This document shows, in pieces, positions 60,110-64,000 of a DNA stretch of 64,000 nt. The notes under the pieces are model-generated. The model saw only the letters and a program-made list of their open reading frames with translations. It was not told where the DNA came from and did no database searches. The stretch is taken from contig CBDFFH010000022.1 in NCBI GenBank assembly GCA_965246715.1, positions 32,001-96,000 of the forward strand, in the 5' to 3' direction. Position numbers and translations under genes: made by a program. Numbering within the stretch: the first letter of the stretch is position 1; each line of letters opens with the position of its first letter. The DNA is from Chamaesiphon sp. Its GTDB lineage: Bacteria > Cyanobacteriota > Cyanobacteriia > Cyanobacteriales > Chamaesiphonaceae.

Positions 60110-61567
60110 ATGAAAAACCTACCGATCGTGACGGGGATTGTTGGCTGCTCGCTAGCATTGAGTTTATCCGGCGAAGCCGCTCGTGCTTCTAGCTTGGGAA
60201 TCGATCCGAGTATTCAAAGCCAGTTTAATATTACGCCGTTTGCTACGGGTTTGGATTTTCCTAATGGGATCGCACAACTCAGCGATGGTTCGCTGTTAGT
60301 CGGCACCAGTCAGGGGAATGGCTACTTCGATCCGCAAGCAAAAGGTCAACTCGTGCGCTTTCAAGATACTAACGGCGATGGTGTTGCCGATAGTAAAACG
60401 GTTTTGTATGACGGATCGAGAGCTGGGAATAATTTACCTGGTGGGATTACCGCAATTCGATCGATCGACAACTACTTATTTGTCGCCAGCGACTTACCCA
60501 GTAAATATCGCATTTCCGTGTTCCAACAGGGCACCGATTTCAGCGCTGATTCTTTGGCTTTAAAAGGTTCGCTCGACTTCGCTTATCCTGCTTCATACAT
60601 CCATCCCTCATCGGCTTTAGCAGTTCGTCAAACTGCAGGACAACAATATGAGCTATTCTTTAATGTCGGCTCGGCTGGAAATAATCAAATAACTACTCCA
60701 GGAACTGTCACTGTCAATAGCGGAATTTTTAATGTTGCGGCAACTCTCAATGGTGATTCTATTTATAAACTGCCGATTACTATTGGTACGTCGAATTTAA
60801 CTATTGCCAACCCCGTGCAAGTTGCGAGTGGATTGCGGAATGCAGCGGCGCTGGAATTCGATCGCATGACAGGCGCTTTGTATATTGGTGACAATGGCAT
60901 CGATGGTTTGACAAATGCTAATAATGCCCTGACAGCAGACGAACTAAATCGATTAACCACCGCTCAGCTTGCTAGTGGCGATATCAAAAACTTTGGGTTT
61001 CCCAATTATAGTGAAAAATACGATAACCCCGGCGTGTATATCGATGGGAACGATCGAATCGTTAGCAAAACCGACCCAAATTGGATCGACCCCCTGGCCA
61101 CTTTTCAGCCACTGACAAACCCACCGCCAGATTCTGATAGTGAAGGGGTTGCGTCGATCTCATTTGCACCCAAAAACTTTCCGACAGGAACGAATAATGG
61201 TGCTTTTGTGGGCTTTTTCGGTCGGTTCGGATATCAATCGGGCGACGATCGCGAAAACCCATTAGTTTACTACGATCTCGATACTGGGCGCTATTTTCAT
61301 TTTCTCAGCAGTAAGTATCCTGGTGGCGATTTCGGTCACTTTACCAACTTATTATCCACTCAAGACACGCTGTTTACTGTAGATATCGCAGCTGGATCTG
61401 GCTCGCTGTTTAGCTCGGCTGGTTTGGGTAAAGGCGCGATTTACCAAATTACATCCTCGTCACTCCCAGCTCAGTCTGTCCCCGAACCATCAACACTCTT
61501 GGGTACGCTCGTCACCCTGGGTTGTGGGATCTGGCTTAAACGCACGGTTAAGCACTCAGGTCGTTAA
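60110..61567 (+). CDS. PEP-CTERM protein with glucose/sorbosone dehydrogenase-like beta-propeller
   Basis: Signal peptide, FATGL..P, ASGLRNA, DELN, NFGFP; C-terminal VPEP-TM-KR. Confidence 0.82.
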   Translation: MKNLPIVTGIVGCSLALSLSGEAARASSLGIDPSIQSQFNITPFATGLDFPNGIAQLSDGSLLVGTSQGNGYFDPQAKGQLVRFQDTNGDGVADSKTVLYDGSRAGNNLPGGITAIRSIDNYLFVASDLPSKYRISVFQQGTDFSADSLALKGSLDFAYPASYIHPSSALAVRQTAGQQYELFFNVGSAGNNQITTPGTVTVNSGIFNVAATLNGDSIYKLPITIGTSNLTIANPVQVASGLRNAAALEFDRMTGALYIGDNGIDGLTNANNALTADELNRLTTAQLASGDIKNFGFPNYSEKYDNPGVYIDGNDRIVSKTDPNWIDPLATFQPLTNPPPDSDSEGVASISFAPKNFPTGTNNGAFVGFFGRFGYQSGDDRENPLVYYDLDTGRYFHFLSSKYPGGDFGHFTNLLSTQDTLFTVDIAAGSGSLFSSAGLGKGAIYQITSSSLPAQSVPEPSTLLGTLVTLGCGIWLKRTVKHSGR

Positions 61568-61754
61568 ACTGGACTAACTTATCGATCGCTTAGCAGCTAC
61601 CGTAGCCGATCGAGATATGCTATGCTAGGCGACATTCGAGTTCTAGTCCGCAGTATCATGCCTGCGATCGTGTTGATGATATTTTCAGTTTTATTAGTAG
61701 ACAGCACTCGTGCTGCTAAGGAGGATGGTCGGATCTAAGTGTTTCGACCATTCG

Positions 61755-61916
61755 GTGCTAGACGTTGAGGCGAGACTAGCTCAGGCTCACAGACTTTCCA
61801 AAGATCGTGCCTATCGCGATGCCTCGGGACTATTTTTTATTGAAGGCGTTCGCAATTTCGTTCGGTTAGTAGATAATAAATTTGAGCTAGCGACGATTTT
61901 ATTTAGTGAGAAATTG
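61755..61916 (+). pseudogene. N-terminal fragment of a TrmH/SpoU RNA methyltransferase cut by the MITE
   Basis: R.YRD.SGLFFIEGVR motif; the frame runs into the MITE TIR and no continuation is visible after 63373. Confidence 0.6.
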
Positions 61917-61959
61917 GGCGTTGCTGAATATGGGTATGATTTTTTGTAGGGGTGCTCCT

Positions 61960-62008
61960 GTCTTGTCGTTTTTTTATTCGGGGGGAACCCCCGAATAAAA
62001 ACGCCGCT
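61960..62008. mobile_element. 49-bp CT-flanked hairpin mini-element (copy B)
   Basis: Removing it restores the uninterrupted MITE sequence (same length, 2 substitutions); ends GTCTTG / CGCCGCT. Confidence 0.8.
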
Positions 62009-62069
62009 TGTGGGTACCCTGAATCGATGCGGGGTAAGCACGAGGCATTACCCCTTGTATCCTAAAGGA

Positions 62070-62285
62070 AGGTCAAAGAGTAAAATCGTAAGACCGAGCA
62101 TCAACAGCAAAAGGGAAAGGGAAATTCGGATTGCCCCTAGGGACACCAAGCCCGTTAAGTAGATCGAATTACCTTAACCTAAACAGTGGAACCAGTCAAA
62201 GCTGGACAGTATCAGAGGTCGTCCCAAACGGGTAAACCTGCATTTACAAGGATAGTTTATCGCCACTAATTGCTGTTGAAGCAGT
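62070..62285 (+). ncRNA. Predicted bridge RNA of the IS110 element (boundaries approximate)
   Basis: Guides ATTGCCCCT (62130-38), GTAG (62159-62), ACAGTATC (62206-13) and TACAAG (62245-50) in the IS621 order; closing stems AATTCG/CGAATT and TCAACAGCAA/TTGCTGTTGA. Confidence 0.85.
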
Positions 62286-62308
62286 CCATTAGCAGATAGG
62301 AACTGGCC

Positions 62309-63301
62309 ATGAGTAATTCAAACGAAGAGTTAGACATACTCGGTATCGACATCAGCAAAGCCAAATTTGACGTAGCCTTACTCAAAAACAACGGCAAAGA
62401 CAAAATCAAAAGCAAGGTATTTGCGAATACCCCAGAAGGGTTTGAGCAATTACAGGAGTGGCTAAACAGCCAAGGAGTAACCAAACTACATGGCTGCATG
62501 GAAGCAACTAGCATTTACGGAAATGCCCTAGCCAGATTTCTAGTTGCAGCAGGATACATCGTAAGTATCGTTAATCCATCCCGTCCAAAAGCATTTGGAC
62601 GAAGTGAATTAAGTCGGACGAAAACCGATCGTGCGGATGCAAAAGTGATTGCCAGATTTGGCGCGGCATTACGCCCAGCACCCTGGACTCCTCCAGCGAT
62701 CGAAGTCGAACAACTTCAAGCTTTGGTTCATCGCTGGGATAGTTTGACTGCCATGCAGCAACAAGAGCAGAATCGACTCGAAACGGTTGACCCAATTTTA
62801 GTCGAGGCGATCGCCGCACATATTGACTTCCTCAAGCAACAAGTTGCTGCGACTCAACAACTGATTCGCGACCATTTCGATCGATCCCCCACTCTTAAAG
62901 CTCAACGAGATTTACTGATTTCGATGCCAGGTATTGCCGCCGCTACTGCAACGGTAATACTAGCCGAAATTCGCGATGTGGCTACCTTTGACAGTGCCGA
63001 CCAGCTTGCTGCTTTTGCGGGTTTGACCCCGCATGAGTTTTCTTCTGGTTCCTCTGTTCATGGCAAACCCCGTTTGTCTAAGATCGGTAACGCTCGTTTG
63101 AGAAAGGCTCTCTATCTGCCTGCGATTGTTGCTCGTCGCGATCATCCCTTGATTCAGGTTTTTTGCGACCGTCTGTTGGCTAAAGGTAAGTCGAAAATGG
63201 CGATGATTGGTGCTGCTATGCACAAACTTCTGCGCCAGGTCTTTGGTGTGCTGAAATCTCAACAACCTTTTGACCCGAATTTTCTTTCTCTTCTCTCTTG
63301 A
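62309..63301 (+). CDS. IS110 family transposase (bridge recombinase)
   Basis: DEDD RuvC-like motifs GIDISK, MEATS, KTDRADA; C-terminal GLTP...SSG catalytic Ser region; intact 330 aa. Confidence 0.96.
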   Translation: MSNSNEELDILGIDISKAKFDVALLKNNGKDKIKSKVFANTPEGFEQLQEWLNSQGVTKLHGCMEATSIYGNALARFLVAAGYIVSIVNPSRPKAFGRSELSRTKTDRADAKVIARFGAALRPAPWTPPAIEVEQLQALVHRWDSLTAMQQQEQNRLETVDPILVEAIAAHIDFLKQQVAATQQLIRDHFDRSPTLKAQRDLLISMPGIAAATATVILAEIRDVATFDSADQLAAFAGLTPHEFSSGSSVHGKPRLSKIGNARLRKALYLPAIVARRDHPLIQVFCDRLLAKGKSKMAMIGAAMHKLLRQVFGVLKSQQPFDPNFLSLLS

Positions 63302-63303
63302 CT
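63298..63303 (+). promoter_or_regulatory. -35 box (TTGACT) of the promoter formed on IS circularisation; pairs with -10 TATCCT at 62058-62063
   Basis: Joining the right end to the left end gives TTGACT-17 bp-TATCCT. Confidence 0.8.
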
Positions 63304-63404
63304 CTCAAGACAGTATCTACCGATGTTTTCAGCGATGTTTAGATCGCCGATCGTACTTGCATTCAGCAACGCTCGTAATTTCTCAATCTGAATACTCGAT
63401 CGTG

Positions 63405-63824
63405 TTAATAATTGCGGGTGGTGGAAGAACAAGCCAATGTTTCTGTACTACTGTTGTTGGCGATAATAGCTGATGCTTTCGCTTCATTTTTGGTATCGAT
63501 TAAATACATATTTTTGCGGTACTTGATGAGTGACTGTCCGCGTAACCCACTGCTCAGAAAGCGATATCCTTGGTCGATCGCTTGATATTTACCATTTTCA
63601 TCTTTGGCAGTATAGTAACCATTGGCTCTGAGCGAGATTTCTCCCGTTGCCGTAGTCTTGCTGCCGCATTGAAACTTGCCGATGATATTACTGCCAGTTG
63701 GTAGACTGGGTGTTGCTTGTGGACTCGTGGTTGGCTGGGGCTGCTGCGATCGGGCGGAAACAGTGACAAGACTAGCTAAAATCGTTAGCAAGCTAGCAGA
63801 TGCAATGGAGATCGATTTATTCAT
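63405..63824 (-). CDS. Hypothetical secreted protein
   Basis: Signal peptide, P/T linker, small two-Cys domain. Confidence 0.7.
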   Translation of the reverse strand: MNKSISIASASLLTILASLVTVSARSQQPQPTTSPQATPSLPTGSNIIGKFQCGSKTTATGEISLRANGYYTAKDENGKYQAIDQGYRFLSSGLRGQSLIKYRKNMYLIDTKNEAKASAIIANNSSTETLACSSTTRNY

Positions 63825-64000
63825 GTTGGTGTTAATCGGTTTGATGTGCTGTTAACAACCTGGCGTTGGCGTTGGTACGCACAAAGCTTACATATACGCG
63901 CAGCGAGCATAATATCGGCGGATATTTTTGCCTTCGACGAATGGGACGGCAATATCGAAAGTCCGCATTCAGCCATGCGGCAAAGGCGACGCTACACGAT

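Follow-up and report, generated by a model that had tools for sequence, protein, structure and literature searches.

An intact-looking IS621-type IS110 element of Chamaesiphon whose predicted bridge RNA matches its own joined ends and the tip of a REP-like palindrome

Bridge RNAs of IS110 elements have been catalogued on a large scale, with 5,511 target-RNA and 2,201 donor-RNA pairs in Durrant 2024, in which the first loop is variable and the second conserved (PMC11208160). The closest described systems are IS621 of E. coli (PMC11208160, PMC11208158, PMC13626964; PDB entry 8wt6), with which the element described here shares an identical 14-bp donor, the CT core, the right target guide (RTG) GUAG and the left donor guide (LDG) ACAGUAUC, and ISCro4/IS622 (PDB entry 9t56), which is its best match in the PDB and has the same domain and RNA layout. 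ISCro4 was chosen from 72 orthologues screened in human cells and is active there (bioRxiv 10.1101/2025.05.14.653916); the activity of our element is a prediction. From cyanobacteria, GTAG repeats have been described (PMC3733652), and IS1594 of Anabaena is an IS110 element reported in REP-like repeats (PMC3184786), likened to ours by description. The papers found since 2024 on IS110 bridge RNAs in cyanobacteria, judged by title and start of abstract, do not concern this element.

The window is the whole 64,000-nucleotide stretch of Chamaesiphon DNA that was analysed. The IS110 element occupies window positions 62056-63318 (1,263 bp counting one core) and is enclosed by CT cores at 62054-55 and 63317-18, the duplicated CT that the first-pass annotation had given as its boundaries; a CT is found at both ends in all five copies possessing two ends. 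The tips are, by inspection, not inverted repeats, so long terminal inverted repeats are absent. When the ends are joined, the circle junction reads ACAGTAT-CT-TGTAT, which had been named as the E. coli IS621 donor and equals the donor sequence printed in the Hiraizumi 2024 supplement (PMC11208158). The element consists of the following parts:

62054..62055, + strand: left CT core (sequence, copy comparison).
62056..62060, + strand: right donor TGTAT, the left tip of the element, overlapping the predicted -10 box TATCCT (62058-63).
62309..63301, + strand: IS110 recombinase of 330 aa, with D14, E65, D107, D110, S246-G247 and wedge residues Y269, L270 and I273.
63310..63318, + strand: left donor ACAGTAT and right CT core (sequence, Hiraizumi 2024 supplement).

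The reading frame of the recombinase is open, and its catalytic and wedge residues align to their IS621 counterparts. The protein matches both IS110 domains (Pfam PF01548 and PF02371) and the NCBIfam family NF033542 (IS110 RNA-guided transposase), the latter with 242 bits against a cut-off of 140. Its only two matches in the PDB are ISCro4 (E 5e-76) and IS621 (E 7e-73). Of 8,000 proteins scored in a search, at least 5,319 are homologous at E up to 1e-50; the named relatives, 67-81% identical, are from Pseudanabaena, Phormidium and an uncultured cyanobacterium. The stop codon is located 15 nt from the right end of the element. Elements of the IS1111 group carry their guide RNA in the right end. 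They also have sub-terminal inverted repeats of 7-17 bp (PMC11208160). Assignment to this group (the seekRNA type) was rejected: AAG/CCT alone flanks the donor, the RNA lies in the left end and the right end is short.

The left end is laid out, according to the comparative alignment, as a target loop followed by a donor loop, each an internal loop with an inner hairpin. At 152 nt to the LDG, it is as short as in most relatives. The predicted RNA and its promoter contain:

62070..62270, + strand: predicted bridge RNA, with ends placed from promoter spacing and stems (fold z = -4.0; alignment, pair counts).
62113..62179, + strand: target-binding loop, with outer stem, inner hairpin (62140-53) and conserved A62123/G62128 and A62149/G62154, corresponding to IS621 A43/G48 and A67/G72.
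62130..62138, + strand: left target guide (LTG) ATTGCCCCT, covarying with the sites.
62159..62164, + strand: RTG GTAG (62159-62) and handshake AT (62163-64), the latter predicted to pair with donor T7 and A6 (PMC11208158).
62185..62267, + strand: donor-binding loop, with outer stems, inner hairpin (62216-39) and invariant A62199/G62204 and A62235/G62240.
62206..62213, + strand: LDG ACAGTATC, from the sequence; in relative L015 guide and donor change together.
62242..62251, + strand: right donor guide (RDG) ATTTACAAG and handshake G62251; two U are likely bulged, and G62251 is predicted to pair with target C7.
63298..63303, + strand: predicted -35 box TTGACT, 17 nt from the -10 box in the circle only.

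The four guide words of the first-pass annotation are all in place, with the LTG at 62130-38, the RTG at 62159-62, the LDG at 62206-13 and TACAAG at 62245-50. When the 253-nt left end was shuffled 5,000 times with its dinucleotides preserved, the LTG word turned up in 8 of the shuffles, the LDG word in 20 and both together in none. TACAAG had been taken as the complete RDG; the word is present, but by IS621 numbering (PMC11208158) the guide is likely to span 62242-50, with two bulged U.

The predicted bridge-RNA region folds better than shuffled sequences (z -4.0). Whether the guides lie inside stem-closed loops, as had been claimed, depends on the kind of fold: the alignment gives open loops, while in the single-sequence minimum free energy fold letters 2-5 of the LTG are paired to the RTG, and three letters of the LDG to three of the RDG. 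The latter pairing was rejected as a conserved structure, having two-sided changes in 0 of 7 pairs. When an IS621-style structure is laid on 21 aligned sequences, 82.5% of the cells are paired, against 33-49% when it is slid, and two-sided changes occur in 25 of 32 pairs, although the structure was drawn from the same 21 sequences and these values thus favour it. RNAalifold recovers the same stems independently from 12 of the aligned sequences. Six of the eight flipped-A/syn-G positions of IS621 are invariant in 21 of 21 sequences; of the remaining two, one is conserved in 18 and one in 17 of 21. In this alignment, the window copy has mismatches at three of the nine pairs of the lower stem of the target loop. 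The predicted open loops for the guides rest on this comparative evidence. A search of Rfam over 61500-63500 gave 0 matches at E up to 1. With a covariance model, applied to 150 of 556 candidates, no extra guide loop or stand-alone RNA was found; its 12 matches are all known IS copies or remnants, and there is one match inside the window.

By sequence match, the joined ends build TTGACT-17-TATCCT; the integrated copy has TAAGCA at the -35 place. TTGAC is present at the same place, or one base off, in 11 of the 17 other rows. A linear promoter scan of the left end found nothing (2 sites against 1.8 in shuffles), as expected, because the -35 box is at the opposite end of the element.

The element sits between repeat arms, and its surroundings are made up as follows:

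61710..61916, + strand: 5' part of a TrmH-like RNA methyltransferase gene (weak MRM3-like Pfam match), cut by the IS-bearing repeat.
61909..61916, + strand: 8-bp target duplication AGAAATTG of the outer repeat, with its partner right of the C15 copy, outside the window.
61917..62053, + strand: left arm, a nested MITE/REP-like repeat with GTAG at 61946-49, which supplies the left half-site; the same 137 nt are found at the C43 copy and in 3 of 23 empty copies.
62047..62053, + strand: left target ATTACCC, where the guide reads ATTGCCC; a position-4 rG:dT wobble is predicted.
63319..63373, + strand: right target AC and right repeat arm, from another ancestral locus than the left flank.

Four full copies, 99.7-100% identical, are present in the genome (G000), on contigs C22 (the window copy), C47, C15 and C43, together with a 108-bp mini element on C54 and two 5' remnants as partial copies. 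The left half-sites of these seven copies (family A) read ATTGCCC in three cases, ATTACCC in three and ACTGCCC in one. The right half-site is AC in four of the five copies that have a right end, all four full copies included, and CC in the mini element. The left half-sites of the genomic copies, a comparison by which the first-pass annotation could have failed, are thus related, with ATTRCCC in six of seven and ACTGCCC in the seventh. The annotation was also right that the site ATTACCC-CT-AC departs from the guide by one base, at position 4, where the guide has G and the site A. IS621 shows the same position-4 mismatch, which has been explained as an rG:dT pair (PMC11208160), and this mismatch is the commonest in our set of relatives (3 of 36 sites, plus the excluded C43 copy).

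Empty target words are abundant, with 76 occurrences of ATTGCCCCTAC and 39 of ATTACCCCTAC against about 5 expected for each; the words are 8-16 times above Markov expectation, and the position-4 C and T variants are not enriched (4 sites for one, 0 for the other). With wobble, the G at guide position 4 would accept A as well as G, and a single guide would have access to the two variants of the repeat (76 + 39 empty sites). The repeat itself is multi-copy and GTAG-tagged, and contains a perfect 28-bp GTAG-to-CTAC palindrome that occurs 18 times. Its earlier designation as a GTAG-REP fits this sequence; the expected association with RAYT genes is absent, since the repeat flanks 0 of the 6 Y1_Tnp loci of the genome. 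The GTAG-12, -15 and -16 consensus, published as a figure (Di Nocera 2013), gave 0 matches in four supplement files. One of the six Y1_Tnp loci (L095, G000:C34:104298-104570), a Y1 HUH (RAYT-like) gene, has the target repeat of a second element family, family B, on both sides in inverted orientation. Of the 115 empty target words, 94 end a repeat arm, and the occupied sites lie in repeats. This would be in keeping with a site choice that requires a palindrome hairpin or cruciform besides the 11-base guide match, in the manner of the sequence-plus-structure choice proposed for ISPpu10 (bioRxiv 10.64898/2026.03.19.712850). Most available sites lie in repeats anyway, however, and with n=7 the occupancy is that of no extra preference; IS621, moreover, can be retargeted to arbitrary 11-mers (PMC11208160). 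We consider an added structural requirement improbable, and prefer choice by the guide match.

The other copies differ from the window copy in several ways. Those on C47 and C15, two of the four full copies, carry a T-to-G change at the position of window 62058 (TGGAT), by which the right donor is altered and, at its first base, the -10 box as well. In the C43 copy (G000 C43:135063-136547), a 220-bp multi-copy repeat (starting CGTC, with 52 near-full copies) is located in the inter-loop linker, leaving both loops intact. The mini element (G000 C54:20138-20247) is made up of 32 nt of the left end and 71 nt of the right end, with no RNA or ORF; it occupies a family site to which four letters have been added on the right, and the same joint is present in runs X1 and X2. 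The two 5' remnants (G000 C22:145016-145338 and C41:88360-88681) are diverged (85%); each has a complete bridge RNA that bears the same left guide, but the ORF is reduced to some 20 codons, with the break at one point common to both. They could supply guide RNA in trans.

Family B is present in the same genome in five copies, with a protein 56% identical, the same donor and the guide CCCGCCCCT. Its sites read CCCGCCC in four of five copies and CCCACCC in one. Taken together, the two families represent a natural guide swap inside one genome. One composite repeat (G000 C15:204605-207372) has a copy of family B at one end and one of family A at the other, back to back and about 135 bp apart.

Relatives were collected from genome and metagenome scans (11 + 7 loci), searches of genome sets (with relatives in 6 of 41 and in 10 of 401) and plasmids. 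The 67 matches were reduced to 38 by collapsing those with identical RNA and an identical 25-nt left flank, and two more rows were removed before the covariation count, b05 because its RNA is interrupted by a repeat and b23 because it contains no element. Plasmid matches from E. coli, Klebsiella, Pantoea and Bandiella, taken as IS621 stand-ins, were excluded (21-44 bits on the model, no such donor guide). For the 22 distinct bridge RNAs, the LTG columns 62130-36 match their own left half-site at 6.02 of 7 positions, against 3.46 when shuffled (0 of 20,000 shuffles reaching this value), and for the 14 distinct guides the values are 5.6 and 2.93; as the rows are kin, the shuffle values overstate significance and are not probabilities. 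Among 124 seven-letter windows tested, the one at 62130 is the best. Guide and site match in full at 24 of 36 sites and differ at 12, with the L015 and L039 guides shifted by one column in this count and unshifted in the mean-match test. Among the latter is L033, whose site is off from its guide at six of seven positions.

In L042, the RTG and the right half-site change together (GAAG with a site CT-TC), and in L015, the sole row with a donor-side change, the LDG and the donor change together (ACAGCATC and ACAGCAT). At 33 of 36 sites, the base at position 7 is complementary to the handshake base of the donor loop. The 558 CCCCTAC repeats of the genome make C-rich matches easy, and one could suppose that the guide-like words are due to chance or are copied repeat fragments, with the protein alone choosing the site. 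The covariation persists, though, on the variable positions 1-4 (3.17 of 4 against 1.36; 0 of 20,000), and L009, L049 and L051, with proteins about 81-82% identical to that of the window, have other guides and matching sites. Judged from these sequences, the supposition appears already largely refuted, and we regard it as extremely improbable next to reading of the site by the guide. In a protein tree of 19 of the 21 rows (without L037 and L039), CCCGCCC occurs in two well-supported clades while near neighbours carry other guides, a pattern that would point to repeated natural reprogramming. L049, from a metagenome contig, combines a family A scaffold (82% protein identity) with the family B guide CCCGCCC and a matching site, which we read as convergent retargeting. 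Four family B relatives (L014, L025, L035 and L038) have 100-260 extra nt before the target loop, with tandem short repeats in L035; a cursory look at these extra nucleotides revealed no evident second guide loop.

The flanks of the window copy come from different loci. In G011, a near-complete relative about 95% identical, the left flank of the window copy joins the right flank of the C15 copy, the left flank of C47 joins the right flank of the window copy across the IS-bearing repeat, and the left flank of C15 joins the right flank of C47. Because G011 joins these flanks otherwise, the C22, C47 and C15 copies have exchanged flanks in a cycle; the regions concerned are window 61710-61916 and 63319-64000, G000 C15:207373+ and C47:100227-101491. 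The 3' part of the TrmH-like gene is located to the right of the C15 IS copy, and the uncut 280-codon frame in G011 maps to C22 and then to C15. The left-flank repeat continues with ACAA in all 23 empty copies and in the C43 copy, and with ACCG in the window copy. The outer repeat makes 8-bp duplications in 17 of 23 tested cases. Both misjoining of the near-identical 1.26-kb repeats by the assembler and real recombination would fit the exchange; the repeat arms beside the TrmH-like gene are a mixture of types, for which one misjoin would not account. When C22 is compared with G011, one end follows it and the other is placed at a distant location; the element is not spanned by any of the runs. 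The reconstructed insertion site of the first-pass annotation is therefore to be read in two parts: the 11-mer ATTACCC-CT-AC is unchanged, its right half AC being present at all four full copies, but the longer empty site is a hybrid of two loci, and since the flanks are non-cognate, the exact insertion event of the window copy cannot be rebuilt. Co-transposition of the IS with its left flank was considered and is not needed, as three empty repeats share those 137 nt. At G011:C3:1061490-1061515 (L082), an orphan right end (AAGACAGTAT-CT) is fused to a repeat at a shared six-letter word, an arrangement that deletion or aberrant excision of an entire IS copy would leave behind; this junction equals the right-flank junction of the window. 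Within the window, a 485-aa ORF is also present at 60110-61567, with a likely signal peptide, a weak DUF7133 match and a C-terminal VPEP motif, which we take to be PEP-CTERM-like.

The element is, very probably, an intact IS621-type IS110 member, with a predicted bridge RNA matching its own joined ends and the tip of a REP-like palindrome, and likely performs RNA-guided CT-CT recombination. By analogy with IS621, excision would start from low read-through transcription (PMC13626964) and the ends of the element would join into a circle. The TTGACT-17-TATCCT promoter created at the junction would then raise transcription of the bridge RNA, the donor loop of which would hold ACAGTAT-CT-TGTAT and the target loop ATTRCCC-CT-AC. 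A tetramer would recombine donor and target at CT, with the handshake bases driving strand exchange. A 2026 preprint favours single-strand copy-out and half-match reactions (10.64898/2026.08.31.748434). The end-to-start joint of a circle is absent from the contigs of runs X1-X5, X13, X18 and X21, a weak test, as contigs drop rare forms; the RNA runs X18 and X21 contain short contigs of relatives only and are uninformative on expression. The absence of the joint from the contigs of these eight runs would agree with the window copy being an inactive relic, its spread having come earlier or in trans via another copy or family B, and so would the state of the other three full copies, two with the T-to-G change in the right donor and -10 box and one with its RNA split by the 220-bp repeat. 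The window copy itself keeps the tip present in all relatives examined, retains all catalytic residues and has an open ORF identical to those of two other copies, and an inactive relic seems unlikely to us compared with an intact element.

The site of L033 bears on how elements with a common donor interact. This single element (G107:C20:4597-5859), 76% identical to that of the window, has the guide GAAACCC and handshake G and is located in ACCGCGA-CT-AC. A co-resident family with three left ends (including L041/L074, G107:C93) has the guide ACCGCGA and handshake T, and its sites read ACCGCGA twice and ACCGCAG once. The ACCGCGA site is enriched in G107 (14 against 4 for the reversed control), while the own target of L033 is not (4 against 24), and the handshake base, too, fits the RNA of the co-resident family. 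The simplest reading of these sequences is that L033 would have been delivered by the guide of its neighbour through the shared donor (n=1); a chimeric assembly or a half-match event may also account for its placement. Between families A and B, cross-targeting is seen in 0 of 12 copies in this genome. It is possible, if on balance doubtful, that a donor nearly invariant from enterobacteria to cyanobacteria, combined with freely rewritten guides, makes co-resident IS621-type families interchangeable, the circle of one being delivered by the guide RNA of another, and that this cross-talk also exchanges flanks between copies already integrated and reshapes the chromosome; the signs would be the placement of L033, the 108-bp mini element, devoid of RNA and ORF, in a family site, and the three cyclically exchanged flanks. 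Cross-talk of bridge RNAs has been reported in engineered cells (10.64898/2026.04.29.721476), and trans action has been suggested for short IS110s and ssr9 (10.64898/2026.08.14.744561, PMC12288879). No report of natural cross-guiding between donor-sharing families was found in the open-access literature. Guide borrowing, if true, would be the natural counterpart of cross-talk in engineered dual-RNA editing, and would explain the conservation of the donor.

When the element is compared with IS621, the two also share the handshake AU and G, the flipped-A/syn-G spacing, the junction promoter, the position-4 G wobble and a REP target ending in CCTAC. They differ in the LTG, which is ATTGCCCCT in our element and ATCGGGCCT in IS621, and opposite donor T12, where the element has a canonical A and IS621 a G. 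The IS621 protein is distant from that of the element (249 bits, against 500-650 for close relatives), and the long 5' stem-loop is known from IS621. The protein, the guide-site covariation and the conserved structural nucleotides support the overall claim of the first-pass annotation, by which the element is an intact IS621-type orthologue whose donor loop is conserved and whose target loop differs and is directed at a REP. In the Durrant 2024 supplement, the orthologues with target loops TTTGCCCCTAC and TTCGCCCCTAC have a target specificity that differs by one or two letters from the guide of the element, likewise in GTAG-ended palindromes; donor guides in the neighbouring entries are ACAGTTG, against ACAGTATC in the element. 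The readable parts of that supplement contain no TBL_ATT entry, nor the RNA or marker words of the element. That the donor loop is conserved and the target loop varies is the published pattern (PMC11208160). Since thousands of orthologues are catalogued, near-identical target loops occur in the 2024 supplement and REP targeting by IS1594 is known, the novelty of the system is low, and the element is probably another natural form of a programmable insertion tool already known, not a new system. At the system level, it adds one more readable orthologue to a family of thousands of predicted members. Its practical value is that of a recombinase that works with the IS621 donor but is distant and probably of cyanobacterial origin, and about 14 natural guides on related scaffolds show natural retargeting.
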